DNA from: Chiloscyllium plagiosum
Taxonomy: Eukaryota
Length of the DNA: 64,000 nt
Direction of reading: 5' to 3'
Assembly (NCBI RefSeq): GCF_004010195.1
Contig: NC_057756.1
Location: forward strand, 8,034,676-8,098,675
Shown: positions 13,468-53,058 of the stretch, piece by piece
How the letters are laid out: every line of letters starts with the position of its first letter
Numbering within the stretch: the stretch's first letter is position 1
Translations under genes and position numbers: made by a program
Notes under the pieces: generated by a model
Told to the model about the DNA's origin: nothing
Seen by the model: only the letters and a program-made list of their open reading frames with translations
Database searches by the model: none

Positions 13468-13537
13468 ATGGGATATTTAGTCATCTTTTATATACAGGCT
13501 ATTTACTTCCCTGTGTGTGCGGCTGTTGGAATCACTG
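13468..13537 (+). CDS. Receptor A coding exon 1 (MGYLVIFYIQAIYFPVCAAVGIT + G), N-terminus and TM1 of a GPR139-like class A GPCR
   Basis: ATG at 13468 is followed by 23 codons plus 1 nt and a GTAAGT donor at 13538. The phase-1 join to the acceptor at 17935 gives ...VGITV-NLVAIVIL, with the TM1 Asn in place. TATATAAG lies about 80 nt upstream. Confidence 0.85.
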
Positions 13538-14439
13538 GTAAGTCGTTATTACAACGGTCAATGTTTTGCTGCTGTACTTAATATTATTTCAGACTGTTTT
13601 GTGTTTTTTAATTGTTTGTGGAATCTCCTCAGTTTCTGTCTTTGCAAGAGACTGAAGTACAGCTTTGTTTACACAGAGGTCGATAAACATATGGAATGGG
13701 TGCCAGAGGAAGTGGCTGAGGCAGTTACATTAACAACATTTAAAATGATTTTGAACAAATACATGGGAGAGGAAAGGTTGGGAAGGATATGGGTCAAGTG
13801 CTGGGAAATGGGGTTAGCGTGCATGGACGTTTTGGTCAGCGTGGACCAATTTGGGCCACAGGGCCTGTCTCTGTGCTGGAGGCCTCCGTGACACAATAAC
13901 TGTCTCACATTTGTAATGGTTATTGTTGACCTGATCCTGGAACAGTTATTTACTGGATTATTCTCTGTTCTGGATGTAGTGGAATCAGGTCGTTGTTCCA
14001 AGAGGAGGAACCAGACCATCAAAAGCTGTTGAATCTTCAGACTATAATCTGGCCTCATTCATGACCATTCTTGCCCCCATCTCCATCTTGATTTCATGTT
14101 CTTGTCTTCAGTCAGAGCTGACCTTTATTCTACCATTAACACCTATACTGAACCAATAGTCTTTTTTTCCTTCACTACTCATTTGCTGTTTGTATTGTGA
14201 CAACTTGGATGTCCATTTTTGGGACATTTCATCAGTGTGCACCACAGCTGCTGGAATTATAAATGAGTCTGTGTATCTGTCATCTATAAATGGCAGTGGT
14301 GATGTTGGTGTATCATTTATTGAACAACGGCATCATCGAGCATTGCACTTATTCCTGCCCACACGGGAGGATTTTCCACTCTTCTGAGTTGTCTGTAGAG
14401 GAGACAATCATATATGTCCAACCCATGATGGCAGCAGTG

Positions 14440-14790
14440 TCATAGAATCTCTGCAGAGTAAAAACAGGCCAGTCAGCCCAACAAGTCCACATCGACTTTC
14501 AAAACAGCCTCCATACAGACTTACCCTCCTGCCCTATCCCTGTTACATTGCATTTGCCACGGTTAATCTACCTAATTTACACGTCGCTGAGCACTACGCA
14601 CAATTTAGCATGGCAAATCCACCGAACCTGCATATCTTTACACTGTGGGGGGTAGCCTTGTACCTAGAGGAACCTACTAGACTCGGGGAGAATATGCAAA
14701 CCACACACAGACCATCGCCTGAGGCTGGAATTGAGCCCAGGCCCCTGGTACTGAGACAGCAGTGCTAACCACTGAGCCATCATGCCAACC
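14440..14790 (-). mobile_element. HE1-like SINE, diverged
   Basis: Same layout with many substitutions. Confidence 0.7.
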
Positions 14791-14860
14791 CCAGATTCAA
14801 ACCAAAATTGCTGTGGCCACAACGCAGAGTACAAGCTAATAGACTGTGTACAATCACAGC
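14791..14860 (-). pseudogene. tRNA-His(GTG) pseudogene in the receptor A intron
   Basis: The minus strand reads GCTGTGATTGTA...TACTCTGCGTTGTGGCCACAGCAATTTTGGTTTGAATCTGG, which matches the vertebrate tRNA-His core TACTCTGCGTTGTGGCCGCAGCAA. The D arm is damaged and the 3' acceptor strand is missing. Confidence 0.75.
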
Positions 14861-15131
14861 ATCACGCACAAAAGGGTCGCTGAACAATTGGAGTGTTGAG
14901 TGATGTGTAGAAACATTCTGATATTCACAGAGGCTGTACCTTTGAACAAACTGACGCCAAGAATGTAATTAATGAACACAGAGCTAGTGAACAGATAAAA
15001 ATGCAGCAGATTAACAATGCCTTGAATTTGTACAGAGACAGCAGGAAGCAATTAATGACAGTGCCAAAAAGATATAGTAAGGAGCAACAGTGAAATAGTC
15101 ATGAAAGGGGAGGTTTAAATAAACAAACAGC

Positions 15132-15433
15132 GGGGTGGCACAGTGGCACAGTGGTTAGCACTGCCACCTCACAGCGCCAGAGACCTGGGTTCAATTCCCA
15201 TCTCGGGAAACTGTCTGTGTGGAGTTTGCACATTCTCCCCGTGTCTGCGTGGGTTTCCTCCGGATGCTCCGGTTTCCTCCCAAAGTCCAGAGATGTGCTG
15301 GTTAGGTGAATTGGCCATGCTAAATTGCCCGTAGTGTTAGGTGTGGTGGAATTGTTCAGGATGGGTTGCTCTTTGGAGGGTCAGTATGGACTTGTTGGGC
15401 CGAAGGGCCTGTTTCCACACTGTAAGTAATCTA
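15132..15433 (+). mobile_element. HE1-like SINE
   Basis: GGTGGCACAGTGGTTAGCAC head, GGTTCAATTCC B box, V-domain and tail. Confidence 0.85.
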
Positions 15434-15727
15434 AATTTAAAAAGATGCAAGGCCTGAGAGAGTTCTAACTGTATTACAAATGAGACAGAGTGTTTATCGC
15501 ATGGAAACATCATTTGGGAATTCTGAATTTAAAGTAGCAGTAAATAGATTTGTAGTCTCTGGTCTGAGAAGATTATTTTCTTTAAATGTCAGAAGTTCAC
15601 TTGGAAAATTGAAATACATACTTTATTTCCAGCAGCATTAAGAGTTAGGCTGAGTGCCTTGCAAGACACAATGGAGTTAATTTTCAGAGTATTTACTATG
15701 TTGATTTTTCTGACTTTGGAATTTGCC

Positions 15728-15930
15728 AGCTCAGTTGGCTGGATACCTGGTTTGTGATGCAACGTGATGCAGGCAACATGAGATCAACCCCTGCACTGGC
15801 TGAGGTTACTATGAAGGATTCTTCTTACCTCTCCCTTTGCCTGTGGTGTAAACCACCATCAGTCATCTCCCTCTCATGAGAGAGCAGCCCCATGATCTGT
15901 TTGGACTGTGGTGACGTTACTTTATTTTGA
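15728..15930 (+). mobile_element. Third SINE-like family (partial copies at 18835-18980 + and 60490-60620 -)
   Basis: Shared GCTGAGGTTAC.ATGAAGGA..AAACCAC..CTCTC..GAGAGAGCAGCC, with an A-box-like GCTCAGTTGG head. Confidence 0.55.
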
Positions 15931-16688
15931 CAGGCAGAAACAAAAATCAAATTATTGGGGCCTGTAGTAGTTTGATTTCAGCAGTATACAATTTGGGTCC
16001 AGAAGCACAGTTTCATCTGAGAGGAAAATAAATTTGTTGACTTGTAAAATCTCCAAATTTTGAGTTTGTCAGAGTAGATTTCAGAACTGAAAATGAATCT
16101 GGGATCCCAGAACTGGAAAACAAATCTCCAGACCAACTGTAAAAAGTCACTTTCATAAGAAACTTAAGATTGAAGTCAAACATCGCTGGGATTGAGTATT
16201 GTTAAGGATATTGCAAGGAAATGGATCGAAACATTCTTTTTTGCTGTTTGTTTTGGCATAGAGATGTTTGCTCCTTTCCTGTAATGTTATTGTGATAAAG
16301 AATGCTACAATCTCAACAACAAACTTTCTGTAACTGAGCACCACTAAGAAAAACTGCAGAAATAAATCTTGTGATCTATCAAGTCAGGTTTCCCTTTCAG
16401 ATCTGATATGTACAGTATTGCCATCAGTAAAATCATGGCCAAAAGAAATTGTGACACTTTCAGTATAATTATAATTAAGGGAAAATGCAAAGGTGATAGA
16501 ACGAAAAGTTTTGCAAACTTTAAGAGATTTATTGTCTAAGGGGACTATTTTTCATTATCAGGAGCTGAGTATGCTTTGGTGAGTTTTCTTTAATAAATTA
16601 TGAGATTTTCTACTTTAAAATCCATGTATTTAACAAAAATTTGATTATTTAATTAGTATCTTTAACTTAAATTTAAAAAGTCTGTGAA

Positions 16689-16982
16689 GTGCGGCATGGT
16701 GGCTCAGTGATTACACCTGCTGCCTCACAGCAACAGCGTCCCAGGTTCGATTCCAGCCTCGGGTGACTGTCTGTGTGGAGTTTGCACATTCTCCCCGTGT
16801 CTGTGTGGGGTTCCTCCCTCAGTCCAAAAATGTGCGGGTCAGGTGAATTGGCCATGCTAAATTGCCCATAGTGTTAGGTGCATCATTCAGAGGGAAATGG
16901 GTCTGGGTAGGTTACTCTACAGAGGGTCGGTATGGATTTGTTGGGCCGAAGGGCCTGTTTCCACATTGTAGGGAATCTAATC
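16689..16982 (+). mobile_element. HE1-like SINE
   Basis: Head, V-domain and tail are present. Confidence 0.85.
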
Positions 16983-17599
16983 GGCAAATTGATCAAACAC
17001 TGATGTGTCCAGTAAGGTTTTCTGCCGTCCTAGTCATCTCAATCAAAGTTGGGTTGTATTAGCCTACATTCTCTCAAAAATGGCTGATTCTCAGCCAAAC
17101 TTTCAAACTGAAATGAATCTTCTGTTGCTTAAGTTTGGATACTTTAACAAATCATCTACTCTTGCTTCCAGCAGTTTGACCAGATCTTTTTTCTTGTCTC
17201 CCTGACATTTGCAATCACTGGCTCAGTTTGGGATGCCTATTGCAACACTGAAACCTCAAACTCACTTCTATTTTATCACCTATTTTCTTTTGTTTTGTTT
17301 TTACTCAGGTTCTGGATACTTCATTATCCCAGAGCAACAAAACGTTTGTGATTCCCAAAGTCCCCAAGTCATCTGCAGCATCATTATAGAGTTTAAATAG
17401 ATGTTATATCAGCAGATTCCCATTCTATAAAGGTCATGACCCCTTTTCATGTGGCACTTTCCCTCAACACTTTTAGTGAATCCAGTGCAGACTTGATTCA
17501 ATTTTTCTCCTGATTTGTCAATGAATTATTCATAATTTTTTTTAACATTTCTTTGTGACAAAGAGTGGTACAGGTCAATGAATATCTTTTCACTAAACA

Positions 17600-17934: not shown

Positions 17935-18587
17935 TTAACCTGGTTGCAATTGTCATCCTGAGTCAAGGAAGATGTGGTCTCTCTAAATGTATTACTCACT
18001 ATCTGGTGGGAATGGCAATGGCTGATCTCCTGGTTGTTATCTTTGATGTCATATTGAACTGGACTATTCCAATGTATTTTGGAGAAACATTCCTAGCTAT
18101 TACTCCAGTATGTAGCCTCATACTCACCCTAATGTTTGCAACCACTGGTGCCTCTGTTTGGCTCACAGTCGCTTTCACCTTTGATCGATTTCTTGTGCTT
18201 AACGCTCTGACAGTGAGATCTATTTTAGTGACCGGTCGAGTCCGCACCACACTGCGAGGTATCAGCAGTGGAGAAAATCACAAGGACCCAGAGATGGAGA
18301 ACCGGAGAAAATCCATCATTTTACTCTTCAGTTTATCTGCCAATTTCATACTGTTATGGATGATATATGTTGTGTTTAACCTTTATCGGAGAATTGCTCC
18401 TGATCATTATGATTCCTCCTACACAGATACAATATACAGCATTGAATCCATGGGAGAAATGCTGCAGATTCTCAGCACCTGCACCAACACATGTATTTAC
18501 GTGGTAACTCAGACTAAATTCAGAGAGGAACTGAGGAATGCACTGAAATACCCATTCAAATTCATTCTCAAACCAGCTAAATCATAG
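17935..18587 (+). CDS. Receptor A coding exon 2; spliced product 240 aa, lacking ICL2, TM4, ECL2 and most of TM5 (5-TM variant or young pseudogene)
   Basis: A pyrimidine-rich TTTTCCAG acceptor is in frame with ORF 18006-18587. Motifs: GRCGLSKCITHYL, MADLLVV, AFTFDRF, DPEMENRRKSIILL, TCTNTCIY. DRF is joined directly to LVLN, whereas paralog B has 82 residues between them. Confidence 0.85.
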
Positions 18588-20359: not shown

Positions 20360-21750
20360 ATAAGGAGGGTTCCAGGAGGTTTTAGGAAGTTTACGAAATG
20401 TGGAGTGATTCAGGGGCTGCAGCATATTAGAGCGAAATGAGCATAGTAAAGGCTTGAGTATGTTACAAAGCCAGGGAGGGGAGCAGGGGCTGGAGGAGTT
20501 TACTGAGATAAGGAGGGATGCAGGGGCTGGAGGAGGTTACAGAGATAGGAAGGGGAGCAGCAGCTGGAGGAGGTTACAGAGAGAGGGAAGAGTGTAGGGG
20601 CTGAAAGATGTTACAGAGATGGGGAGAGGACAGGGGCTGGAGAAGGTTGCAGAGATGGGGGGGGTCAAGGGGCTGTAGGAGGTTACAGAGATAGGGAGGA
20701 NNNNNNNNNNNNNNNNNNNNNNNNNNNNNNNNNNNNNNNNNNNNNNNNNNNNNNNNNNNNNNNNNNNNNNNNNNNNNNNNNNNNNNNNNNNNNNNNNNNN
20801 NNNNNNNNNNNNNNNNNNNNNNNNNNNNNNNNNNNNNNNNNNNNNNNNNNNNNNNNNNNNNNNNNNNNNNNNNNNNNNNNNNNNNNNNNNNNNNNNNNNN
20901 NNNNNNNNNNNNNNNNNNNNNNNNNNNNNNNNNNNNNNNNNNNNNNNNNNNNNNNNNNNNNNNNNNNNNNNNNNNNNNNNNNNNNNNNNNNNNNNNNNNN
21001 NNNNNNNNNNNNNNNNNNNNNNNNNNNNNNNNNNNNNNNNNNNNNNNNNNNNNNNNNNNNNNNNNNNNNNNNNNNNNNNNNNNNNNNNNNNNNNNNNNNN
21101 NNNNNNNNNNNNNNNNNNNNNNNNNNNNNNNNNNNNNNNNNNNNNNNNNNNNNNNNNNNNNNNNNNNNNNNNNNNNNNNNNNNNNNNNNNNNNNNNNNNN
21201 NNNNNNNNNNNNNNNNNNNNNNNNNNNNNNNNNNNNNNNNNNNNNNNNNNNNNNNNNNNNNNNNNNNNNNNNNNNNNNNNNNNNNNNNNNNNNNNNNNNN
21301 NNNNNNNNNNNNNNNNNNNNNNNNNNNNNNNNNNNNNNNNNNNNNNNNNNNNNNNNNNNNNNNNNNNNNNNNNNNNNNNNNNNNNNNNNNNNNNNNNNNN
21401 NNNNNNNNNNNNNNNNNNNNNNNNNNNNNNNNNNNNNNNNNNNNNNNNNNNNNNNNNNNNNNNAGATAGGGAGGGTGTAGGGGTTTGAGGGGGTTACTGT
21501 GATAGGGGGGGATGTGGGGCTGGAGGAGGTTACAGGGATAGGGAAGGATGTAGTGGCTGGAGGAGATTACAGAGATCGGGACAGGTGTAGGGGCTTGAGG
21601 AGGTTACAGGGGTAGGTAGGCTTTGGAGGAGGACACAGAATAGGGAGAGGTTTCGGGGCTGGAGGTGGTTACAGGGATAGGGAGGTGTGTAGGTGCTGGA
21701 GGAGGTTCCAGAGATCTGGAGAGATCTAGGGACTGGAGGAGGTTTCTGAG
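20360..21750 (+). repeat. G-rich minisatellite, unit about 32 bp (GGGGCTGGAGGAGGTTACAGAGATAGGGAGG..), spanning an N gap
   Basis: Tandem degenerate units lie on both sides of gap 20701-21463. Confidence 0.85.
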
Positions 21751-22919
21751 ATTGTGAGGGGTGTGGCTGATTGCGAACGTTGTAGGATTAGCAATATGAC
21801 TACTCCATGAAGTGATGTGAAGTGGGAAATGAGGCACTACAGGGAGATATGAGAGTGGGACCTGCTGGACCATCAGACAGAGTTTGGATTCCTAAGTCAC
21901 CCCAAGATTCTGGAAAACCCACAGGGAAATTGATTGAGGGCCACCCTAGAGCAGCACTTATTTCTTCCACATTGGGTGGAGTAAGAATTGAGCTGAATGA
22001 CCCTGGATCTCACAGAGACTGGACAATGGGACGCCATCAGGTTTGGAGATAAGAAAGCAACAGGATGAGAGATGCAGAAAGTGGAGAGGAGACAGCCTTT
22101 AATCACTCTCACATTAATCACATGTAATGACACACATCGGGATTGAGATCACAGGTTAGGCCATTCATAACGCACCCAGACCCACTAGACTGTGAATACA
22201 AACTGCAGGGAACCCCACCCCAACCCCTTAAAATCTTCCTCCCATCAGCTGGGGCTTTGAAAGATCCTGAATGAACATTTGGCACACCGTTCCAGCCTGT
22301 GTTCACTGTGTGGGTGGAAACCTCAGTGAATGCCACAGGCAAGGCCCATGTTTACTCTCCAACATTCCCCTTGCCCCTAAGAAAGTGATGGTCCTCCTCT
22401 TGTCTTGAACCAGCTGCTTTCCCTCCTGGTAAAGGAGACTGTCTCCGTGTGGAATAACATCCAGGATCTGAACCAGCAGTGAAGGTTCCACGACTGAATA
22501 GCCCATTAACTATCTCAGTCTTTTTCCCCAACAAAACACGGGAGCGATCAGATGGAGGTGGGGTTGAAGACAGGAAACATTGACCAGAGAGATGGCATAT
22601 ATTTTCTGGGAGGGTATCCAGTGGATACTAGCCCAAGGTAACTTCAAGTTATGGCAAAATGTGATCACTCTTCCTCTCTCTGCCCCTCTCAATCTCGCCT
22701 CCCATCTTTCCGAAAACCTTCCTCACCAATCCCCAGGGGAAAAGGATGCTGGCTCCCAGTGAAGGCCCTTGGCACCATGCCCCCACACTGTTCACCAGTG
22801 GTGGACCATTCCTGTGCTCACCTGGCACTTCCCTCCCCTCCCCGTGCCCAGCGCTGGGGCGCCCTGCCACATCTCCCAGAGTCTCAAGTTGCACATCTGG
22901 AAACTGCCATTACCCACAA

Positions 22920-24238: not shown

Positions 24239-24480
24239 GCTCAAAAACTGCATGAATTCATGTAGAACTCTGAGCTCAAAAACTGCATGCATTCGTGTAG
24301 AACTCTGAGCTCAAAAACTGCATGCATTCGTGTAGAACTCTGAGCTCAAAAACTGCATGCATTCGTGTAGAACTCTGAGCTCAAAAACTGCATGCATTCG
24401 TGTAGAACTCTGAGCTCAAAAACTGCATGCATTCGTGTAGAACTCTGAGCTCAAAAACTGCATGAATTTATGTAAAACTC
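24239..24480 (+). repeat. 35-bp tandem array, about 7 copies (GCTCAAAAACTGCATGCATTCGTGTAGAACTCTGA)
   Basis: Units start at 24239, 24274, 24309, 24344, 24379, 24414 and 24449. The five inner units are identical and there are no spacers. Confidence 0.95.
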
Positions 24481-29009: not shown

Positions 29010-29320
29010 CTGCTTACACAGAGAGATCTGTGATAATGTCAAGGTGAAATGAATTCTGGCATCCAAGTGACTATTACATGATGCAGTGCAGTTTCAGCTC
29101 CTCCAACTCCATTACAGGATGAGCAGGAGATAGCCATCTGGGAAAGGCAAGCATCAGCGTACACCTTGGACTGAATTAATCTCGGGAGTGCATCCCATGG
29201 GATGAAGAGAGTCTGGTGTAGTTCTGTAGGCAATTTGCTAAAAGGACTGGAGCTAAATTTGTCCTGGGAATTGAGATCAAAACAAATGCAGTTTCATAAA
29301 GTATGAAGAGGTATATAAGA
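29010..29320 (+). repeat. Near-identical upstream duplicate of the receptor B promoter, ending just after the TATA box
   Basis: Direct repeat of 30255-30563 with few differences. ORF-track entries 29039-29233 and 30282-30476 are almost identical. Confidence 0.92.
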
Positions 29321-30240: not shown

Positions 30241-30254
30241 CAAACATCAAGTTT

Positions 30255-30563
30255 CTGCTTACAGAGAGATCTGTGATAATGTCAAGGTGAAATGAATTCT
30301 GGCATCCAAGTGACTATTACATGATGCAGTGCAGTTTCAGCTCCTCCAACTCCATTACAGGATGAGCAGGAGATAGCCATCTGGGAATGGCAAGCATCAG
30401 CGTACACCTTGGAATGAATTAATCTCGGGACTGGATCCCATGGGATGAAGAGAGTCTGGTGTAGTTCTGTAGGCAATTTGCTAAAAGGACTGGAGCTAAA
30501 TTTGTCCTGGGAATTGTGATCAAAACAAATGCAGTTTCATAAAGTATGAAGAGGTATATAAGA
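30255..30563 (+). promoter_or_regulatory. Putative promoter of receptor B: homeodomain-type AATTAAT (30417-30423), O/E palindrome TCCCATGGGA (30436-30445), TATATAAG (30555-30562)
   Basis: Motifs were read directly. The TATA box starts 91 nt before the ATG. Homologous blocks occur upstream of pseudogenes C and D. Confidence 0.6.
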
Positions 30564-30645: not shown

Positions 30646-30727
30646 ATGTCAAACGTGGAGAGGATAAGAGTTCTATTTGCCACTACATACATATTCCGTT
30701 GTATCATTGCACCCCTCGGAATTCTTG
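30646..30727 (+). CDS. Receptor B coding exon 1 (MSNVERIRVLFATTYIFRCIIAPLGIL + G)
   Basis: ATG at 30646, 27 codons plus 1 nt, then a GTGAGT donor at 30728. The phase-1 join to 36042 gives LGILG-NLVTVIIL, the same intron position and phase as in receptor A. TATA box at 30555. Confidence 0.85.
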
Positions 30728-31397: not shown

Positions 31398-34300
31398 TGT
31401 TATGAAGTTGAAGGTGTGTATTGTACTTTTAAGAGAGAGTGAACGCTGTCCTGAACTGAGAGATTACAAGCAATTGTGTGTATGACTAGATGGCACTGCC
31501 AAACTGCACTGGAAATTCAAAAATATCTAACATTTGACCATGAAAGAGATACCTGAGTTTTGGTTGCTGCTTTGACCACATTTCCAACTTAACCCATCAG
31601 TTTAAATTATGCCCCAGTATATAAAACCTTATCATGTCTGTATTTATTGATTTTCTAATATCAAACCAATGAGACAATGCGATGTTGGGGGTATAAAAAT
31701 GCAGACAATTTGAACTTTGGAGAGAGAGCAACTGCCACCAAGACAGAAACATCTGGAGATGTAACAACTTGCTCTCCAAGAAATTAGGAAACACTCTCAA
31801 TCAAAAATACCTTTTAGTATGAAACATATTTGCAATAAATAGAAAGACGATGACCCAGAGACATCTTCAGCTGGAAGAGAGAAGACAGAAGAATACAGTG
31901 ACTGTGTCATTTTGATATTAAATTGATATAATTTTTATAAGTGTCTTATTGGAACAGCATACTGTTGCAGAGTTGGAGGCCGATGGGGGTGAGTAACTCA
32001 GAGAGTGGGGGGCTTAAGGTTGCGAATAGTTGTTATTTAAAGTTCACTTTTAGAGTTGAAAAATAATTTGATTTCTTGAAATTGTGGAATTTGGGAGTTC
32101 TCTATCACTCGGATTTTAAAAGATTACGAGATGAGGCGAGATTTCCTGGGTGTTGGGTTCAATTAACCGAGGGATTCACCTCCGTGTCATAACAGTTTGG
32201 AGGATCAGGTTGAACATCTGGATTGATTTGAACAGATTTAGACAGATCCAGTCTGAGACTTGGACAGATTTGAACAGATTTGAGATACGAAATGTCCCAT
32301 AAGATTTAAACATTTGCGCATCAGAGCCCTAGATCTTTAATTAAAATGTAGGTGAAAACTTTGTTTAATTTTAGTTACTTGTGTTTGGTTCAAATAAAAG
32401 TGAGGGAAGTGGCTCTTAAGATTGCTCAAGAGGGTGGAGGTTCTGGGATTTGAAGTTGCTTCCCAAATTTGCCAAGAAAGTTTAGAAAGACAGGGGAAGG
32501 ACATAGAATTAGTAAATAGGTTAGCAGTGGGTTTAACCTGGGACAAAAGGAAAGCTGAAATTGTGATGGAGTTGTTCAAGCACTTACGTGTATCAGAGAA
32601 ACAGACACGTGCAAATCGTACATGTTGCAGTTCATAAAATTGTGACAGCAGATGCGTTATTGTGGATTTAAAGAGAGTGTAGGTAAATTCCAATGTCATT
32701 TATATGTGCACAAATTAGTCTGAAAGGTTGACTTAGATTAATGTCCTATGTATTTCATTGTAATGGAATTAACATTAGCAAAACAGAAGCCGACTTTTCA
32801 TTATGATGGTCCATTATTTTCTTAAAGGGGGAGGTGTTATGAATTTGAAGGTGTGTACTGTACCTTTAAGAGAGAGTGAATGTGGTTATGAACTGAGAGA
32901 TTACAAGCACCTGTGTATAAGACTAGATGGCAGTCCCAGAGCATACTGGAAAATAGAAAATATGTAACATTTGGCTGTGAAATATATACCTGAGTTTTGG
33001 ATGCTATTGGACAATAATTCAAATTTAATCAATCAGTTTAAATTATACCACCAGATTCTAAAACAAATTGAATTTATTGTTTTGCCAACCTCAAAGCAAT
33101 GAGATGATCTGATGTGTGGTGCGGGGTATATATAAAAGTGTGGACTGTTTGAAAATGGGAGAGAGAGCAACTGCCATCGAGATAAGAATGCCTGGAGGTC
33201 TAACATTTTGCTCTCCAAGAAATCAGAAAACACTCTGTCTAAGGTACCTTTTAGTATGAAACATACTCGCAGTAAATAGAAAGAAGATAACCGAGAGAGA
33301 TACTAGGCCGCAAGACAAAAGACAGTGGCTGTGCGGTTTTGAAATTAAATTGATGCAATTTTTATGTGTCTTATTAAAACAGCATATTGTTACAGAGTTG
33401 GAGGCTGATAGGGGTGAGCAATGAAGAGAATGGTGGGGGACTTATAGTTGTGAATAATTGTTATTTAAAATTGAAACTGTCTGCATTTAAAGTTCACTTT
33501 TAGAGTTGAATAATAAATTGATTTCATTTTCTTGAAATTGTGGAATTTGGGAGTTCTCTATCACTCAGATTTTAACAGATTACGAGGCAAGATGAGCTCT
33601 CCAGGGTGTTTGGGTTGAATTAACAAAGAGGTTCACCACTGTGTCATAACAGTTTGGGGCTCCGGTCAAATATTTGGATAAATTTGGACAGGTTGAGACA
33701 GATCCTGTCTGAGATTTGAACAGGTTTGAGATATGAAATGTCCCAGAAGATTTAAACATTTGTGAATTGGTGTCCTCAAATAAAATCTTCAAATAAAATG
33801 TAGGTTAAAAATTGTTTAATTTCAGTTGCTTGTGTTTGGTTAAAATAAAAGTGAGGGAAATGGCTCTTAAGATTGCTCAAGAGGTTCTGGGGTTTGAGGA
33901 CGCTTCCCAAATTTGCCAAGAAAGTTAAGAAAGACAGAGGAAAGACATACTTTCAGAATTAGGAAATAGGTTAGCATTGGGTTTAACCCGGGACAAAAGG
34001 AAAGCTGAAATTGTCATGGAGTTGTTCAAGCACTTATGTGTATCAGAGAAACAGACACGTGCAAATCGTACATGTTACAGTTCATAAAATTGTGACAGCA
34101 GATGCATTATTGTGTATTTACAGAGAGTGTAGATAATTTCCAATGTGCAGAAATTAATCTGAAAGATATAACTTAGACGAATGACCAATGTATTTCATTG
34201 TAGTGGAACTAAAGTTAGAAAAACAATCATCTTTTCATTTTTTTATTCTGAACAGGGGAGGTGTTATGAAGTTGAAGGTGTGTCCTGAACCTTTAAGAGA

Positions 34301-35061
34301 GTGTGACTGTTGTTATGAACTGAGAGATTGCAAGCAACTGTGTACATGACTAGATGGCAGTCCCAGAGCACACTAGAAAATTGAATATATGTAACATTTG
34401 GCTGTGAAAGACACCCCTGAGTTTTGGTTGCTGTTTGGACAATAATTCAAATTTAAGCAATCAGTTTAAATTATACTACCAGGTTCTAAAATCCAATTGA
34501 ATTTATTGTTTTGCCAATGTCGAAGCAATGAGATGAGACGATGTTTGAGGGGGGCTGTATAAAAGTGAGGACAGTTTGAAAATGGGAGAGAGAGCAACTG
34601 CCATCCAGACAGGAACACCTGGAGATTGAACGTCATGCTCTCCAAGAAATTGGGAAACCCTCTCTATCAAAGGTAACTTTTCATATGAAACATGCTCACA
34701 CTAAAAAGAGGGAAGATGACTCGCAAAGATTATCAGCCAGAAGAGGGAAGACAGAAGAAGACAGCGGCTGTGTGGTTTTGAAATTCAGTTGATGTAATTT
34801 TAATAAGTGTCTTATTGGAACAACATACTGTTAAAGAGTTGGAGGCCATTTGGGGTAAGCAGTTAAGAGAAAGGGGGCTTTTTGTTGTGAATAGTTGTTG
34901 TTTACTGTTCACTCATAGAGTTAAAAAAAGATGCTATTTTCTTAAAATAGTGGAATTTGGAAGTTCTCTGTCACTCATATTTTAACAGATTACGAGGCAA
35001 GATGAGCTCTCCAGGGTGTCTGGGTTTAAGTAACAGAGGTGTTCACCTCCCTGTCATCACA
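31398..35061 (+). mobile_element. Tandem non-autonomous LTR element: LTR 31398-32194, internal, LTR 32835-33651, internal, LTR 34262-35061
   Basis: Three TGTTATG...CA repeats of about 800 bp. PBS-like TGGGGCTCC at 33655 and PPT AAAGGGGGAGG at 32824-32834. The internal 610-640 bp contains only the gag start ATGGCTCTTAAG. Confidence 0.88.
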
Positions 35062-36041: not shown

Positions 36042-36931
36042 GAAATTTAGTGACGGTTATCATTCTTGCCCGAGGAAGATGTGGGCTGAACAAATGTATC
36101 ACCAGCTATCTTGTAGCAATGGCAGCAACAGATTTACTTGTCATCTTCTTTAGTGTGGTAATGTCATTCATCTTTGATGCATTATACACCTACATGCCCC
36201 ACACTGTCCCTTGTATCCTTCAAGAAGTGATGACATATGTGACCCTTGATTGTTCTGTCTGGTTAACAGTCGCTTTCACTTTTGATCGCTTTGTTTCTAT
36301 TTGTTGCCAGCAGTTCAAACTCAAATATTCCACTGTCACAACTGCAAGGGTGGTGATAGGAACCGTGTGTATATTGAGTTTGGTGACTAACATCCCCTAC
36401 TACTTCACTTATGAATCCTATGAATTATATATGCCTGTTGGTTGTACACAAAGTCAAGAAGTTTACACTCTTCCTGGGTGGCTGGTATTCTTCTGGTTCC
36501 ACAATATTTCAACCCCACTGCTGGCTTTCTGTCTGATTTTGGTGCTTAATGTGCTGACCATCAGACATGTTTTAATATCGAGTAGAGCCCGGAGGAAGCT
36601 CCGTGGTCACGGCAAGGCTGAGAAACATGAAGATCCAGAGATGGAGAGTCGGAGGAAATCAATGATTTTACTTTTCTGTTTGTCAGGGAACTTTGTCCTT
36701 TTGTGGCTGACAGAACTGATTATGAATATGTACTTCAATATCAACAACTCAATTATTGTGACAAGTTGGGCTGACCCAGTAAATGTGGCTGGAAATGCAG
36801 GGACCATGTTGAAACTTCTCAGTTCCTGCACAAACACGTTTATCTATGCTGTGACTCAAAGTAGGATCCGACAGGAAATAAAAAACGGAGTCAAGTATCC
36901 ATTTACAGTAATTCTGAAGCTGATTAAGTAA
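36042..36931 (+). CDS. Receptor B coding exon 2; apparently intact 7-TM GPR139/GPR142-like class A GPCR (spliced 323 aa)
   Basis: Acceptor TTTCTCCAAG, then an open frame to TAA at 36931. TM1 GN, TM2 AATDLL, TM3 Cys and AFTFDRF, TM4 NIP, ECL2 Cys, TM6 RRKSMILL..LLWL, TM7 SCTNTFIY, and helix 8 are all present. Confidence 0.93.
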
Positions 36932-43304: not shown

Positions 43305-43915
43305 ATGAATGCGGGTGTCAGTGGCTGAGACAACAATTATTGCTTGTCCCTAATTGCCCCTTTGAGAAGGTAATGGTAACTTGCCTTCTTGGACCGTTAC
43401 AGACCACGTGTTGTAGGTGAAGCTACAATAGCTTTAGAGAGGGAGAACCAGGTTTTTGACCCAGCAACAATGAAGGAACATTGCAATATTTCCACATCAG
43501 GATAGTGAGTGGTTTGGGAAGAAGTTTGCAGGGGTGACGTTTCCACATATCTGCTGCCCATGTTTGTGGGTTTCTCAGGTGCTGTCTGAGGGGCTTTGGT
43601 GAATTTCAGCAGTACATCTTGTAGATAGTGAACACTGCTGCTGCTGAATGTTGGTGGTGTAGGGAGTGGATGTTTGTGTATGGGGTGCCGATCAAGCGTA
43701 CTGCTTTGTCCTGGATGATGGCCAGCTTCTTGAGTGTTGTCGCAGCTGTGGGGAGTATGCCCAGGCAATTGGGGAAAATTCTATCATACTAATGATTTGT
43801 GCCTGGTAGATGGTGGGCAGGCTTTTAAGAGTCAGAAATTGAATTGTCGCTATAGTTTTCTGAGGTTCTGACCTGCTGTTGTAGCCATTATATTTTAACA
43901 GTGAATCCAATCCCA
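43305..43915 (-). mobile_element. LINE 3' end of a further family (related pieces at 6700-6990, 8330-8650 and 51300-51440)
   Basis: FLT.KSLPTIYQAQI.SM.EFSPIAW resembles a LINE ORF2 C-terminus, and the tail is shared among the copies. Confidence 0.6.
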
Positions 43916-43989
43916 GCTGCTCCAGAGGTGTGCCATTACACATCTGCACAGGTTGGTTTAAAAGAGAATGTAGTAATGACCTGTGCTAT

Positions 43990-44470
43990 CGAAATGATTC
44001 ATTGCACTGTGCAGAGCAAAGTATCCTTTCAGCTCCTTCGAACCTATTACAGACCCAGCAAGACAGGCTGATGTGGCATTGACAAACTTGACTGTATACC
44101 TTAAACTGAATTAATCTCAGGAAAGGAGTTAAAGAGGTGGGTGATGGTGTGATCAATTGGGTCAGCAGCTCTTCATGCAATTTGCTCAAAGGATTGGAAC
44201 TACAATTAACTGGGGAGGGCTGCTGTGGCACAATGGGACTGTCCCAGTGGCTCTGAGGTGGGAGGGTCCAACTGCTCCAGAGGCAGATCATACCAACTCT
44301 GAACAGGTTCATCACATTGCAATGGGATTTCATAAAACAGAGATGGACAGAGTATATTTAAGCTGTATCCATTTATCATCAAATGGTATTTGAATGTGTG
44401 AATGTACATTAGAAATGCAACTGTAATCTCCTTACTTGGTTGTATCATTTACCAACCTTAGTATCAAACA
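43990..44470 (+). promoter_or_regulatory. Diverged promoter and exon-1 homolog upstream of pseudogene C (inverted copy at about 50370-51220 upstream of D)
   Basis: Shares the blocks TTTCAGCTCCT, GAATTAATCTC, GCAATTTGCTnAAAGGAnTGGA, TTTCATAAA, a TATA-like TATATTTAAG and GTTGTATCATT, in the same order as 30335-30710. Confidence 0.55.
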
Positions 44471-44820
44471 ATGCGCGACCTGCCTGGCCTGCAGTTTTTC
44501 CTGGTTGGTTGGTTTTGTTTTGGCTGCACTGATTAATGCAGGGCTGCAGCTTTACACAGATGATCAAGCTTCAGGAAATGCTCAAAGCTGTCAAAGTTCA
44601 TTGCTGTTGTTAGTGATTGTGGATCAACTCCCTTCCCACTCCTTGGAACAGAGCATACTCCAGAGAGCTGTGAAAAGGAGCAACTGGTAAAGGAAATACA
44701 ATCCTGTTTTAATCCATCACTCCTTTCTTCAACTAAGCTAGTCTTGTATCTGTGATATTGACAAGGTATTGTTATGTGTCTGGACACAAATACATTCTAT
44801 TTTCATGTTTATTGTTAAAG

Positions 44821-45238
44821 GTAATTCATTGTCAATTATCATTCTTCCCTGAGGAAGATGTGGGCTCAATAAACGTACCACCAGCTATCTCATTGCAATG
44901 GCAGCAGCAGATCTAGTGGTCATCTTCTTCAGTGTGATAATGTCATTCATCTTCACTGTTGTGTACACCTACATGCCCCACATTGTCCCTTGTACTCTTC
45001 AGGAAGCGATGCTGAATGTGACCCAAGACTGTTCTGCACGGTTAAGAGTCGCTTTCACTTTTGATCGCTTTGTTTCTGTTTGTTCCCAGCAGTTCAAACT
45101 TAAATATTCCACTGTTAAAAATGCAAGGATGGTGATAGGTAGAAGTTAACATTGAGTTTAGCAACTAACATCACATATCACTTCTCCTTTGAATCCTATG
45201 AATCATACATACCTGTTGGTTGTGTACAAAGTCCAGAA
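44821..45238 (+). pseudogene. Receptor C: GPR139-like pseudogene (exon 2 remnant)
   Basis: Acceptor TTGTTAAAG, premature TGA at 44850-44852 (CGA in paralogs), frame disruption near 45140. Homology stops in ECL2 at about 45238, and 45330-45680 resembles the 3' flank of receptor B. Confidence 0.9.
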
Positions 45239-45685
45239 TTCCATAGATTCACCACTCTCTGGCTGAAGAAGCTTTTCCTTATCTCCGTTCTAAAAGTCTT
45301 CACTTTACTCTCAGGCTCATAGAGTTTGCATTGTGCTTTTTATTCATTTAGCTGTGTTCTCTCATTGCCTGTATGTCACTTAAATAAGGCAAAACCATTG
45401 ATGATTCACAGCTATTTGTACATACATTATTTTCTTTTTATTTATTCTGTCCCTCTGGTCAAAAAATTACCCATTAATATTATTTTTTTTGAAAGTGCTA
45501 TCATTTCTTTTGTTTTTGGATAGTTATTATCATACAGTACAAACTGTTCTTCCACAGTTATGCTCCACCATTACTTCAGATCCATATTATCTCACCTTCC
45601 TGCCATTTATCCTTCTCATTGTTAATGTAAAGTATTTATGTTTCCATGTGGTAAGCTTCTCTTCCCTTTTTTACGTTCTAATAAG

Positions 45686-46950
45686 GTGATGAGTGAGGGA
45701 GAGGAATGTTCCTCCTGCATGATGTTTGAGGTGAGGGATGCCGTTATTGTCCCATCCAAGTGCATCTGCAGGAAGTGCACCCAAGTCTCGCTCCTTCAAG
45801 ACTGTGTTAGGGAACTGGAGCAGGACCTGGATGAACTTTGGAACATTCAGGAGGCAGAGGCTGTGATAGATAAGAGTTACAGGGAAGCAGTTACTCCTCG
45901 GCACGAAGAAAGCTGGGTGACTGTTCGAAGGGGGAATAGCAATCAGTGCAGGGATTCCCTGTGGTTGTTCCCCTGGAAGACAAGTATACCATGATGGATA
46001 CTGTTGGGGGGGGGGGGGAACTTACAGGTGCATGCAATGGCATGCTGGTCTCTGGCACAGAGTCTGTTCCTGTTGCACAGAATGGAAGGAAGGAAAGAAG
46101 GAGGTGTTAGTCACTGGAGACTCAATAGTTAGAGGGTCAGATCGAAGGTTTGTTAGGAACAAATAACACTCACGGTTGGTGTGTTGCCGCCCAGGTGCCA
46201 GGGTCGGTGATGTTTTTTAGATTAGATTACTTTAGATTACTTTACAGTGTGGAAACAGGCCCTTCGACCCAATGAGTCCACACCGACCCGCCGATGCGCA
46301 AACCACACATACCCCTACATTTACCCCTTACCTAACACTACAGACAATGTAGCATGGCCAATTCACCTAACCTGCACATCTTTGGACTGTGGGAGGAAAC
46401 CGGAACACCCGGAGGAAACCCACGCAGACAAGTGGAGAATGTGCAAACTCCACACAGTCAGTCGCCCGGGTCTCTGGCGCTGTGAGGCAGCAGTGCTAAC
46501 CACCGTGCCACCGTGCCACTCCCCATGTCTCGGATCATGTCTCTGGGGTCGTGAAGGGAGAGGGTGACCAGCCCCAAGTCGTGATTCATGTGGGTAACAA
46601 CATAGGTAGAAAGAGGGAAAGGAATGTAAGCCAGGATTTCAGGATCTGGGGTGGAAGCTGAGAGCTAAAACAAACAGAGTTGTTATCTCCGGTTTGTTAC
46701 CCATGCCACGTGATAGCGAGGCAAGGAATAGGGAGAGATATCAGCTGAACACATGGCTGCAGGGATGGTGCAGGAGGGAGGGTTTCAGGTACATGGATAA
46801 TTGGAGCTCATTCTGGGGAAGGTGGGACCTCTACAAACAGGATGGTCTTCACTTGAACCAGAGGTTACTAATACCCTGGGTGGGAAATTTGCTGGTGCTA
46901 TTTGGGTAGGTTTAAACTAGCTCAGTAGGGGGATGGAAACTGAGGTGTAG
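45686..46950 (+). mobile_element. CR1 LINE ORF1 (Cys-rich N-terminus plus SGNH esterase-like domain)
   Basis: CSSCMMFEV..CRKC, GDSIVRG, LNTWLQGWCRREGFRYMDNW..DGLHLN. Confidence 0.85.
46219..46518 (-). mobile_element. HE1-like SINE nested in a CR1 ORF1 fragment
   Basis: V-domain and tail are present, and CR1 ORF1 homology continues on both sides. Confidence 0.85.
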
Positions 46951-46955
46951 TTGAG

Positions 46956-48421
46956 AGGGTGGCCCCAATTTACCACGATATTGGAACTGGTGATATTGAA
47001 GGACATCATCATAATCAGTTCTAGGTAAAAACCACCATTCAACCACACCGCCCTGTGGCCCAACATTTCAACTCTCCCTCCCACTCAGCTGAGGACATGG
47101 AGGTCCTGGGCCTCCTTCACCGCCGCTCCCTCACCACCCGACGCCTGGAGGAAGGACGCCTCATCTTCTGGCTTGGAACACTTCAACCCCAGAGCATCAA
47201 TGTGGACTTCAACAGTTTCCTCATTTCCCCTTCCCCCACCTCACCCTAGTTCCAAACTTCCAGCTCAGCATTGTCCCCANNNNNNNNNNNNNNNNNNNNN
47301 NNNNNNNNNNNNNNNNNNNNNNNNNNNNNNNNNNNNNNNNNNNNNNNNNNNNNNNNNNNNNNNNNNNNNNNNNNNNNNNNNNNNNNNNNNNNNNNNNNNN
47401 NNNNNNNNNNNNNNNNNNNNNNNNNNNNNNNNNNNNNNNNNNNNNNNNNNNNNNNNNNNNNNNNNNNNNNNNNNNNNNNNNNNNNNNNNNNNNNNNNNNN
47501 NNNNNNNNNNNNNNNNNNNNNNNNNNNNNNNNNNNNNNNNNNNNNNNNNNNNNNNNNNNNNNNNNNNNNNNNNNNNNNNNNNNNNNNNNNNNNNNNNNNN
47601 NNNNNNNAGCTAATCTCTCCACGCTTCAGACTCTCTGCCTTTATTCCTGATGAAGAGCTTTTGCCCAAAATGTCGATTTTGCTGCTCCTCGGATACTGCC
47701 TGAACTGCTGTGCTCTTCCAGCACCACTAATCCAGAATCATAATCAGTTCTGTCAGCCACAAAAGGATGAAGATCCCCCACCGACAGCAAAGTAAAATCA
47801 TTGATTTCCTCCGACTCTCCATCTCTGGATTTCCATGTTTCTCAGCCTTGCCGTGACCACGGAGCTTCCTCCGGGCTCTACTCGATATTAAAACATGTCT
47901 GATGGTCAGCACATTAAGCACCAAAATCAGACAGAAAGCCAGCAGTGGGGTTGAAATATTGTGAAACCAGAAGAATGCCAGCCACCCAGGAAGAGTTTAA
48001 CCCTCGGGACTTTGTACACAACCAACAGGTATGTATGATTCATAGGATTCAAAGGAGAAGTAGTAGGGTATATTAGTTGCTAAACTCAACATACACACAG
48101 TATTTATCACCACCCTCACAGTTGTAGTGTTGGAATATTTGAGTTTGAATTGCTGGCAACAAATAGAAACAAAGTGATCAAAAGTGAAAGTGACTGTAAA
48201 CCAGATGGAACAGCCTAGGGCCACACATATCATCACCTCCCGGACAGTGCAAGGGACAGTGTGGGGCATCAAGGTGTACAATGCAGCAAAGATGAACAAC
48301 ATTACCACACTGAAGAAGACCACCAGGAGATCTGATGCTGCCATCGTTATGATATAGCTCATGATACATTTATTGAGCCCACATCTCCCTCGGGCAAGAA
48401 TGATAATTGTCAATAAATTAC
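46956..48421 (-). pseudogene. Receptor D: GPR139-like pseudogene (exon 2), interrupted and 3'-truncated
   Basis: The exon starts at 48421. DRF is changed to DHF, and there is an in-frame TAA at 47997-47999 (TAC in B). A Penelope-like insertion at 47023-47736 follows TM6. The frame resumes as MSFNITSSNIVVNWGHP to about 46956, and TM7 is absent. Confidence 0.9.
47023..47736 (+). mobile_element. Penelope-like 3' fragment inserted in receptor D with a 15-bp TSD
   Basis: VAQHFNSPSHS..RRLEEGRLIF.LGTLQPQSINVDFNSF. ATCATAATCAGTTCT occurs at 47008-47022 and 47737-47751. Confidence 0.88.
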
Positions 48422-48544
48422 CTTTAACAAAAAGACCTTAAATTGAATGTATTTCGCTCCAGACACATAGTAACAGCTTGTCAAAGTAACAAATTTAAGG
48501 CGAGCTTCATTTAAACCATGCAGTGATGGGTTAACACAAGATTG

Positions 48545-50140
48545 TGTAATAGAGGCGTAGAGTCTGATAGCATGGAAAAAGGCCCACCAATCCAAAATAC
48601 TCCATGCCAACCAATTGTCCATCCACACTTGGCCCATATCCTTCTAAACCTTTCCAATCCATGTTTTTGTCCAAATGCCTTTTAAATGTTGTCAATGTAT
48701 CTGCTACAACTACGTCTGCTGGCAGCTCGTTCCTTATTCGTACAATTTTCCATGTAAAACATTTACCCCTCAGGTTCCCTTTTATTCTTTCCCCTCCAAC
48801 CTTGAATCGATATCCTCCAGTCCTTAATTCCCCAAGCCTGGGAAAATGACTCAGTGCATTCACTCTCTCCATGCTTCTTATAATCTTATACACTTCTATA
48901 ATATTCCCCTCAATTTCCTCCACTCTAAAGAAAAATGCCCGAGCTTGTCCAAACACTTCCGATCACTCAGACTCTTCAGTGCTGGCAACATGCTTGAAAA
49001 TTTCTTCTGTATTCTTTCCAGTTTAATAACTTCCTCCCTTCAGCAAGGTGACCAAAACTAAACATCATTCTCTAAGTGCAGCCTCATCAATGTCCTGTAC
49101 AACTGCAACTAATCTTCCCTGACTGATGAAGGTCAGTGTGGCAAAAGGCTTCTTCACTGCCTTGTCTACCTGTGACTCCAATTTCAGTGAACCATGCACC
49201 TGAACTCCAAGGTCCCTCTGTTACACTATACTCCTTAAGGCCTGAATATTCACTATGACACTCATCCTTGCTTTGACTTTCCAAAATGCAACACCTCACA
49301 CTAATCTACATTAAACTCCATTTGCCATTTTTCGGTCCACTTCCTCAGCTGAATCACTCGAAACATCAGGTCATAGACAGAGAACACAGGGGGCTAACAC
49401 CTTCAACATATTGTCCAGCTATCACCATTGTTAACAGCCAACCAGAGAATGTAACTTCAAAAAAAGGGTTTTGTGAGTTACACATGAAAGAAGTGAAACT
49501 ATCACTGTATTCTAACAGATGAAAGGCTTAACAGACAATCAATTTTTCAATGTATAATTTCAGTTACATCACACTGCAAATTTTTGCTATAAATTCTGTG
49601 TTACGATCAAGCCCTCCACAATCACCTGATGAAGGAACGTCGCTCCGAAAGCTNNNNNNNNNNNNNNNNNNNNNNNNNNNNNNNNNNNNNNNNNNNNNNN
49701 NNNNNNNNNNNNNNNNNNNNNNNNNNNNNNNNNNNNNNNNNNNNNNNNNNNNNNNNNNNNNNNNNNNNNNNNNNNNNNTTGGCCTCTCCGCCTCCATCCT
49801 ACTCCGACCTATCACCCTCACCTTGACCTCTTTCCACCTATCACATTTCCAACGCCCCTCCTCCAAGTCCCTCCTCCCTACCTTTTATCTTCTCCTGCTG
49901 AACACTCTCTGCTCATTCCTGAGGAAGGGCCTGTGCCCGAAACGTCGAATCTCCTGTTCCCTGGATGCTGCCTGACCTGCTGTGCTGTTCCAGCAATAAA
50001 GTTTCAACTTTGATTTTTAACTCAGCTGATCAAGATCTTGTTGCAATTTCTACTAACCTTCCTCACTGTCCATGATACCACCTATTTTAGTGTCATCTGC
50101 AAACTTATTAACCATGCCTTGTACATTCTCATCCAAAAGT
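48545..50140 (-). mobile_element. CR1 LINE 3' half in the intron of receptor D, with nested Penelope fragments (49360-50010)
   Basis: GNIIEVYKIIR..RIRNELP..FKRHLDK and ISLQMTLK (frameshifted KFADDTK region). Confidence 0.75.
49915..49950 (+). ncRNA. Minimal type I hammerhead ribozyme motif (ACGT family)
   Basis: ATTC-CTGAGGA-A-GGGC(CTGT)GCCC-GAAA-CG-TC-GAAT has perfect stems I and II. Confidence 0.65.
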
Positions 50141-53058
50141 TCCCTTTCCCAGTCGCTCCTTTTTCACAGCTCTCTGGAGCATGCTCCCTTCTAAGGATTG
50201 GGAGCTTTTGTTGATCCACAATTACTAACAACAGCCATGAACACTGACAGCTCTGAGCTTTCCCTGAAGCATGTTCATCTGTGCAAAGCTGCAGCCCTGC
50301 ATTAATCAGTGCAACCAAACCAAAACCAGCCAAACAGGAGAAACTGCAGGCCAGGCAGGTCGCACATTGGTTGATACCAAGGATGGTAAATGTTACAACC
50401 AGGTAAGGAAACCAGTCGTACTTCTAATGTGTCTTCACACATTCAAAGGCCATTTGATGATAAATGGATACAGCTTAAATATACTCTGTCCATCTCTGTT
50501 TTATGAAATCCCATTGCAATGCACTACAATATCTACTTTATTTACAGCTCCAATAACTGACTCATTTCAATTCCGAACATGATCCATGACTCATACCATG
50601 GGGCTGCTGGGAACCAAAGTTAAGTGACTACGATGAGGGAGTGTCAGCCCTGTCAGCAAAGTAAAAGGAACAAACAAGTTATTCACCAATAATCGCAGAT
50701 TGATTTTTCCTATCCGATAAGGAGTCATAACCCAACACTTCCACCTGATTAAAACAACTGTTCCTCAACAACTTCTTTGTAACTGTGGCAACTGGGTAAT
50801 CATGAGACTGCAAAGTTTAATTCCCAGGTTAGCCCCACACTCAAAGTCACATATCTGATTCCCTCTGTTAAAAGACAGATTTTGTGAAGCCATGGTGATG
50901 AACCTGTTCAGAGATGGTATGATCTGCCTCTGGAGCAGTTGGACCCTTCCATCTCAGAGGCTCTGGGATAGTCCCATTGTGACACAGGAGCCCTGCCCGG
51001 TTAATTGTAGTTCCAGTCCTTTGAGCAAATTACAAGGAGAGCCGCGGACACAATTGATCACACCATCACCCATCCCTTCAACTCCTCTCCTGAGATTAAT
51101 TCAGTTTCAGGTATACAGTAAAGTTTGTCCATCCCAAATCAGCCTGCCTCGCTGGGTCTATAATAGGTTTGAAGGAGCTGACATGACACTTTGCTCTGCA
51201 CAGTGCAATGAATCATTTGGATAGCACAGACCATTTCAACATTCTCTTTAAAACCAACCTGTGCAGATGTGTAATGGCACACCTCTGGAGCAGCTGGGAC
51301 TGGTGGTCAGAATTTCAGACGTCTACAGCGACAAAACCGATTCCTGACTCGCAAAACCTGTCTACCACCCACACGGCACAAATCAGGAGTGTAATGGAAT
51401 ATTTCCCATTTGACTGGGAATACTCCACACAGCTGCAACATTATCAATACTTTTAAACAAAACAGCATTTATTAATAAGATTACCAAATGAAACACAAAC
51501 AAAAGAGATCAGAAAACAGAATAACTTAACCCTATCCAAAGACTCAACAGATTATCCCAATTTAATGATGCCATTCCAAATCCTTACAAAATCCCCATAA
51601 ACATCCTTTGGAACATAAGGTAGAATCAAATCCAGGGTTTTCCAGAACAGAAGTCAGAGAGAGAGGACTCAACTGGACCTGTTTCTTTGTGTCCAGCTTC
51701 AAAATTGCCAGATTGCCGTCAGTAAACAGCCAGACTGCCCAAAAAACATCAAACCAGAGGAAAGCTGAGCTGGGAGAACTGGACACTCCCCTTTCATTTT
51801 ACAAGATTTTATTTAACTTAAAAGCCTTTTCCCTGAGGCAATATCTGTTAGCTGTCATCAAATTGACCATAAAACACATCTCAACCCAAACTTTCAGACC
51901 TGTGTCTTTCACAAAATGAAAAAATATCCAAGGAAAACATAACCTTGTTAAAGGAGCAGCACCATCACACTTCCCTCCTTAAAAAAAGATGAACCATCAA
52001 TATTCAAAGATGGCTTCATTTTAAAACCCCTTAATCCTAAATTGTTAGTACTCCACACCACACATATACACTATATTGACAATAATCATGCAAACATTCA
52101 CTGCTAATTCTGTTTTACTCCTGCCACCAAACACCTCCATTTCCCATTCAGGTCTCGACAATGAGTCAACAATCACATTCTCTCATCCTGCCAAACGCAC
52201 AGTTTTCAAACTGATTGGCTGTAACAACAAACTCCATCTAAACAGCCTGGAATTTTGTCCTTAAATTTCTCCAAACGTCAATCTATTATGGTTGGTGTAT
52301 ATGATTGTCTCAGATACGTCACTGGCAACATAAACATTGAAGTGTTGCAACGCCAACACCAAGCTCAAAGTGTCCTTCTCAACTGTCGAATACTTCTGTT
52401 GATGAATATTCAGTTTCCTGGAGAAATACCCAATTGGTCTTTCTATCTTCTTGATGTCTTCCTCAAGAGCACAGCACCGGCTCCCACATCACTTGGTACA
52501 AATGTTTGATAAAATCCACTCAATCCCAGGAACCGTAGTACTGCTTTTTTATTGATGATGCTATGGGAAACTCCCCAGTTACCTTGGTTTTGAATCCCGT
52601 GGAGCCATTTGTCCATGTCCAATAACATGGCTAAGGAAGGTGACTTGGGCTTTGTCAAATTCACTTTTAGCCGCATTTACCACCAAGCCTGCCTGCCGAA
52701 GTCGGTCGAGCAAGACTGATAAACGCTGCAAATGTTTATTCCATGTGTGACTAAAAATCACCAGGTCATCTCTATACATGAGACAGTTGGGTAATCCAGC
52801 AATGGTCTTATTGGTTAGTCTCAGTAATGTGGCTACAACATTTTTATACCAAACGACATGACTTTAAACAGATACAGTGCATTCAGCGTTACGAAAGCCG
52901 AAATTGTCTTCGCTCTTTCTGACAAATGTACCTGAAAGTGTCCTCTGAGAAAGTCCAACTTAGAAATATAAGTTGCTTGTTGTGCCTTTTCGACACAATC
53001 TTTCAAATGCAGGATCGGATATGCATCAGTCTTTGTAACTGCAATGACTTTGCAATAG

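Follow-up and report, generated by a model that had tools for sequence, protein, structure and literature searches.

GPR139 and GPR142 are class A orphan G protein-coupled receptors (GPCRs) that have tryptophan and phenylalanine (Trp/Phe) as ligands, GPR139 also dynorphin. We analysed a 64,000-nucleotide stretch of the genome of the shark Chiloscyllium plagiosum (NCBI RefSeq assembly GCF_004010195.1, contig NC_057756.1, positions 8,034,676 to 8,098,675 of the forward strand; hereafter the window), in which an earlier note had described a cluster of GPR139-like receptors as a candidate chemosensory family. Six-frame translation, Pfam and tblastn searches of the window recovered four paralogous class A GPCR segments where that note had placed them (copies A to D), namely one intact, one shortened and two pseudogenes. 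They are members of a family of two-exon class A GPCRs that occurs in sharks and rays and numbers well over a thousand copies in the shark studied here. The family is likely to be a large set of detectors for outside molecules, in sense organs or immune cells.

Throughout, G000 denotes the shark genome, C-numbers its contigs, L-numbers loci, P-numbers database proteins and X-numbers sequencing runs. The intact member, copy B, is a two-exon gene on the forward strand encoding a class A GPCR of 323 amino acids. Its exon 1 (30646..30727; 27 codons plus one base, ending in a phase-1 donor) matches the family profile and aligns to the N-terminus of the zebra shark protein P0001, to which copy B is 71% identical over exon 2. 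Exon 2 (36042..36931) is intact and matches Pfam 7tm_1 (E 6.5e-20), and a putative TATA box lies 91 bases 5′ of the ATG (30555..30561). As the note had described, copies A and B both have a phase-1 intron inside the first transmembrane helix (TM1), with donors at both first exons. Membership in class A follows from the 7tm_1 domain, the seven-helix fold, D2x50, D/ER3x50 and N7x49-Y7x53. Among 85 family proteins D2x50, D3x49 and N7x49 are kept in all 85, Y7x53 in 84 and R3x50 in 82, and position 7x50 is Thr, not Pro, in 84. Foldseek returned a class A peptide-receptor-like fold without singling out GPR139 (rank 43), and matches in the ESM Atlas fell in clusters automatically named GPR139 or FMRFamide receptor-like.

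Querying G000 with copy B yielded 7,984 candidates, with 133 of 133 scored at E<1e-73, mostly at 43–52% identity. A TM7 pattern matched 1,482 sites (control 7); because this pattern misses loci in three test sets (24/27, 15/30 and 27/30 recovered), 1,482 is a minimum for the number of copies, though it takes in pseudogenes and may take in second haplotypes. Exon-1 ends with a donor numbered 1,612 (control 0), and a hand count over three protein searches of G000 gave ~320 distinct stop-free full-length second exons. Copies are dense on C8, C37, C44, C46, C47 and C48, and along C8 a full open exon 2 was present at 8 of 20 sampled loci, the other 12 being broken or partial. The repertoire is thus large, lineage-specific and subject to birth-and-death turnover, as in chemoreceptor families and as had been proposed. 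In the protein database, 771 proteins matched at E<=1e-20, the best 120 of which all came from sharks and rays and were nearly all automatically named ‘probable G-protein coupled receptor 139’. The family was found in 13 named shark and ray species with paralogs 43–91% identical, and this identity range together with the presence in 13 species rules out that the whole family arose through faulty assembly. One young subfamily comprises 131 or more members that are 84–91% identical, and a pattern specific to it gave 667 matches in G000 (control 0).

Human GPR139 (7vug) was the best PDB match of copy B (E 2.4e-18), ahead by 12 orders of magnitude. The shark genome holds one true GPR139 of its own (L060 on C21), which is 27% identical to copy B and was the one true match of a second GPR139 pattern; a first such pattern gave 9 matches in G000 against 6 in the control, none of them real. 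This separate orthologue rules out that the family itself is orthologous to GPR139. In L060 the acceptor sits at the identical place and in the same phase 1, before the TM1 Asn. Searches from shark GPR139 led to two further vertebrate lineages and to amphioxus relatives. Both of these orphan GPR139-like lineages (P0273/P0390/P0399 and P0204/P0432/P0437, all automatically named GPR139) occur in bony fishes, amphibians and reptiles, mostly with one match per species; each has its own shark orthologue, and no mammal was among the named matches. Going by description and not by identifier, they probably correspond to what Rinne et al. (2019; PMC6504862) named GPR210A and GPR210B in a study that includes no sharks.

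On the family profile, the orphan lineages and the amphioxus genes outscored GPR139. In an IQ-TREE phylogeny of 50 chosen rows, including 12 outgroups (invertebrate peptide receptors), the family received 100/100, as did GPR139 plus GPR142. The family grouped with the two orphan lineages and amphioxus (96/94) and hence outside the GPR139/GPR142 clade in which the earlier note had expected it, although a joint clade with GPR139 and GPR142 was not rejected (approximately unbiased test, p 0.153). All chordate GPR139-related groups formed one clade against the outgroups (97/95), which, with the acceptor position common to shark GPR139, places the family in a GPR139-related superclade. Of the label ‘GPR139-like’, kinship therefore stands, whereas the genes are not copies of GPR139 or GPR142. 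Because the copy B subfamily contains ray genes (100/100), it predates the shark–ray split.

Selection was analysed on 33 intact second exons of the young subfamily, leaving out three same-place duplicates, one frameshifted and one read-through copy, with our own implementation of the codon site models. In these exons the helices and inner loops are nearly invariant and the outer face is hypervariable, with pairwise dN/dS ratios of 0.30 in TM segments, 0.28 inside and 1.26 (0.91–1.66) outside; this pattern also disfavours a transposon-like neutral spread. Comparison of M2a with M1a gave twice the log-likelihood difference (2dL) as 596 with a dN/dS (omega) of ~10 on 4% of sites, the selected sites being 12 of 68 extracellular positions and 0 of 234 elsewhere, and comparison of M8 with M8a gave a 2dL of 552 with 12–13 selected sites, all extracellular. 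The signal persisted in each third of the set with its own tree, where one inner-loop site passed as well. The selected surface sites are aromatic and charged, and an AlphaFold model (pLDDT 81.5) would place them on extracellular loop 1 (ECL1), the ECL2 hairpin and the tops of TM6/ECL3/TM7. Positive selection was also found in first-exon N-termini (2dL 43.5, omega 2.8; 28 of 45 exons kept). Across 100 family proteins, taken without a control family, mean entropy was 0.56 bits in intracellular loop 1 (ICL1), 0.83 in ICL2, 1.07 in TM segments and 1.14 in ICL3, against 1.48 in ECL1, 1.74 in ECL2 and 2.23 in ECL3. These values and the strong outer-face selection in the young subfamily agree with the contrast between a conserved signalling face and a variable ligand face that had been drawn from the window.

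The Trp/Phe pocket residues of GPR139 are given in PMC5430874 as F3x33, H5x43, W6x48, N7x38 and R6x51. In the family, E3x32, R6x51 and N7x38 are mostly replaced, F3x33 is mostly Y and H5x43 is variable; among four key residues of this pocket, only the class-wide W6x48 is kept throughout. A GPR139-type Trp/Phe sensor was accordingly rejected, and because the pocket is mostly unconserved, ligands other than free aromatic amino acids are a better guess. Amino acids or peptides had been suggested as ligands; peptides are now preferred, as the positions of the selected sites and the peptide-activated relatives suggest, GPR139 itself being reported to respond to peptides (PMC12287315; PMC5218887).

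The young subfamily yields polyadenylated transcripts, as seen from reads on one of its loci in the single-cell poly(A) run X5, which was considered along with run X6 from the same sample and run X7. Out of 12.96 million records, X5 contributed 265 reads. These form a sense pile at the 3′ end, where 24 loose ends of poly-T lie directly past the poly(A) signals, and a second pile described below. Since nearly all of these reads are 85–99% alike to the locus, they likely stem from many paralogs. A contig from X7 departs from exon 2 exactly at the acceptor and runs on into sequence bounded by a GT donor on G000:C95777; its upstream exon encodes no TM1 and resembles a module found upstream of both exon types, so that the contig shows splicing but not a full receptor. 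An exact look-up of 10 exon-2 frames, each from its first Met, gave no match in the collection searched. For copy B, a search of sequencing runs listed no RNA run that holds it, a result that speaks neither for nor against its expression.

Our preferred reading, tentative and short of even confidence, is that the family forms a repertoire with which chemosensory cells detect peptides from outside. Each receptor would bind its ligand at the mouth of the pocket, made up of the N-terminus, ECL1, the ECL2 hairpin and the tops of TM6 and TM7. Signalling would run through a G protein common to the whole family, probably Gq or Gi/o by analogy with GPR139. The weakest step is the site, which would be sensory cells of the nose or taste system, solitary chemosensory cells or gut cells, and which is only slightly preferred over an immune one. 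Cartilaginous fishes have many olfactory neurons and only 20–62 known olfactory receptor (OR) genes (PMC10869828), and the family could resolve this puzzle of large noses with so few receptor genes.

Several observations weigh against a chemosensory repertoire. An older subfamily (24 genes) showed purifying selection only, so that diversifying selection on a variable ligand surface is found in the young subfamily and went undetected in the older one. Immune receptors, too, typically show omega near 10 on a few surface sites; selection tests of this kind can be inflated by gene conversion, and synonymous divergence is somewhat higher outside (0.16 vs 0.105–0.12). Some unplaced copies may be second haplotypes, an example being L002 on an unplaced contig, which is 97.9% identical to copy B including the flanks and differs by 5 silent and 13 replacement changes, ~10 of them on the outer face. 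The transcript level is low, the 265 X5 reads being summed over paralogs, and X6 gave 0 family reads. Some X5 reads are unspliced, and the second pile in that run is antisense, its poly(A) reads covering the 5′ portion of exon 2 (L085:1272-1650). Moreover, the X5 and X7 reads carry no tissue assignment and concern the young-subfamily locus, not copy B. From the literature, an account of the catshark nose based on V2R-type microvillous neurons already exists (PMC10116579), and the top 50 genes of the brain-plus-olfactory library in PMC11979771 include no GPCR.

The family may instead be an immune sentinel repertoire, a reading only slightly less probable, in which receptors on granulocytes, mast-like cells or lymphocytes would detect microbial or parasite peptides, comparable to mammalian FPRs and MRGPRs, and the hypervariable face would stem from an arms race. 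The omega of ~10 at aromatic and charged surface sites, arising in a recent burst of hundreds of copies, would fit such a role, as would transcripts in two libraries (X5 and X7) that were not selected as sensory, and the role could be open, since cartilaginous fishes reportedly lack MAS1 and its relatives (PMC8455134). On the other hand, in the part covered of a single-cell atlas of spleen, liver and kidney from a shark (PMC11372145), whose table carries gene descriptions, no ‘receptor 139’ gene appears among the cluster markers; this is weak evidence because sparse or multi-mapping genes would not be markers. Were the immune reading correct, the family would represent a novel kind of variable receptor for non-self in the most ancient lineage that has adaptive immunity.

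The receptors might also serve signals that the animal itself produces, such as neuropeptides, cell-identity tags or gamete signals, and have diversified as a recognition code in neurons or reproductive tissue, which we consider rather improbable. Heavy pseudogenisation fits such a code less well, and we know of no matching expansion of endogenous ligands, which also counts against it; the first-exon arrays described below are nevertheless reminiscent of clustered protocadherins. In addition, the closest characterised relatives are brain and neuropeptide receptors (PMC12208981, PMC12287315). Least probable is passive amplification, in which unequal crossing-over would have multiplied repeat-flanked cassettes and most of the resulting copies would be redundant or have no function. 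The broken or partial loci on C8 (12/20), the minisatellite modules upstream of both exons, the surplus of partly decayed first exons and the low expression would suit it. Against it stand a B subfamily common to a shark and rays, the ~320 stop-free full-length exons and the selection pattern (core dN/dS ~0.3, surface omega 10), with which such a process is difficult to reconcile even now.

A pattern for the young-type first exon matched 1,519 sites in G000 (control 2), against the 667 for the second exon. On C8:0-6.95 Mb, a hand union of pattern listings contained 63 first vs 12 second exons, and five C8 stretches picked for first exons (421 kb) held 20 first and 2 second exons. In each of two gap-free stretches, two first exons precede one second exon, the nearer of them having an upstream stop and looking decayed. 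No canonical first exon was found within ~17 kb upstream of 8 young-subfamily second exons, two of which have first exons at 22–46 kb. Because 94 of 131 young-subfamily second-exon matches lie on small unplaced contigs, and because the young first-exon type may serve other subfamilies too, assembly fragmentation and gaps may explain part of the excess. Same-strand first exons ~16–40 kb apart without a second exon were seen at G000:C8:585900-635899, 1894001-2024000, 4780001-4870000, 5755001-5815000 and 6670001-6760999; these encode Trp/Tyr-rich N-termini of at least 45 amino acids, are preceded by a repeated 14-residue unit and have no TATA box at –90. A common module with 65-base and 40-base minisatellites lies 1.5–4 kb upstream of first and second exons (L046:4838-6100; L130-L197) and is a plausible substrate for unequal crossing-over.

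It is conceivable, though unlikely, that the young subfamily forms a combinatorial GPCR repertoire, in which arrays of first exons encoding an N-terminal ligand-contact segment would be paired with hundreds of hypervariable second exons, either through a choice among promoters coupled to splicing or through recombination between those repeat modules that precede both exons. Arrays of first exons are seen, gaps and decayed copies confound them, and no transcript joins several first exons to one second exon. If true, this would amount to an antibody-like receptor system on a GPCR basis in sharks, for smell or immunity.

The remaining copies in the window are defective to different degrees. Copy A, on the forward strand, has a putative TATA box (13382..13388) 86 bases 5′ of its ATG and an exon 1 (13468..13537; 23 codons plus one base, phase-1 donor) that encodes the N-terminus and the first half of TM1 and is the top match of the window to the family exon-1 profile. 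The frame of its exon 2 (17935..18587) is open and lacks ~83 codons between the ends of TM3 and TM5 (ICL2, TM4, ECL2 and most of TM5), so that the product of 240 amino acids is likely non-functional. A 97% identical twin 54 kb downstream (G000:C47:8106631) has a gap of equal length with slightly different junction residues, and paralogs at 87–89% identity align to copy A in two pieces ~250 bases apart; the two gaps may reflect repeated deletion or assembly error.

Copy C (44821..45238, forward strand) is an exon-2 pseudogene fragment with an in-frame stop and a frameshift, truncated in ECL2. Copy D (46964..48421, reverse strand) is a truncated exon-2 pseudogene with a stop in ECL2, DRF changed to DHF and a repeat insertion in TM6 flanked by a 15-base target-site duplication. 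The exon-1 profile search found no first exon for either within the window. Since B, C and D are mutually 72–80% identical in protein (82–83% in DNA), the four copies are, by these identities, to be read as two subfamilies and not as four divergent receptors, C and D being broken near-copies of B. The three motifs that the note had called conserved (GRCGLxKCIT, AFTFDRF and DPEMExRRKS) are all exact in A and B only. Self-blastn placed C and D in an inverted duplication (43738..51440; 43738-45237 vs 48004-51440, 79–88% identical), and position 50520, previously given as the end of the cluster, falls inside this duplication at a place without an exon.

Further repeats surround these copies. Window positions 1701-5917 recur ~58 kb on at 61040-64000 (79–87% identical), which together with the twin of copy A probably reflects a tandem segmental duplication. 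A 311-base copy (29010-29320 vs 30255-30563, 97.7% identical) lies 1.2 kb upstream of its original, which ends at the TATA box of copy B. Between A and B there are 37-base and 35-base minisatellites, and a 209-base tandem pair and a duplication of 1.4-kb period in the intron of B were also seen (window 20451-21764, 24239-24480, 10344-10733 and 31398-35061).

Prior to this analysis the family was represented by automatic RefSeq gene models (‘probable GPR139’); its placement, selection, transcripts and first-exon surplus were obtained here. No description of it was found in the literature searched, nor in the open-access texts, with part of the supplements, of PMC11979771, PMC8455134, PMC10620051, PMC7677710, PMC10869828 and PMC11372145. 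Cartilaginous fishes are described in PMC8455134 as showing a paucity of GPCRs, a statement contradicted by this hidden family, which has intact members in the hundreds, part of them under omega-10 selection on the ligand face.

Compared with known systems, the family resembles GPR139 and GPR142 in its best PDB match, its phase-1 TM1 acceptor and its place in one chordate clade, but differs in its low identity (27%), in its huge size as opposed to the single GPR139 of the shark, and in the replacement of most of the Trp/Phe pocket. The orphan lineages and the amphioxus ‘GPR139’ genes group with it, the former mostly with one match per species, and the shark and ray RefSeq models named after GPR139 are members of the family whose automatic name hides that they are not orthologous to GPR139. 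With OR, TAAR, V1R, V2R and T2R receptors and the mammalian MRGPRs and FPRs, it has in common birth-and-death clusters, many pseudogenes, a conserved inner face and a variable outer face; it differs from them in its independent origin from a GPR139-related branch, its TM1 intron, its surplus of first exons and in variation that lies on loops and helix tops, not in the deep pocket. Clustered protocadherins and UGT1A have variable first exons and shared downstream exons. The family is like them in placing several same-strand first exons upstream of one second exon, whereas its second exon itself exists in hundreds of variable copies and its proximal first exon looks decayed in both gap-free cases.

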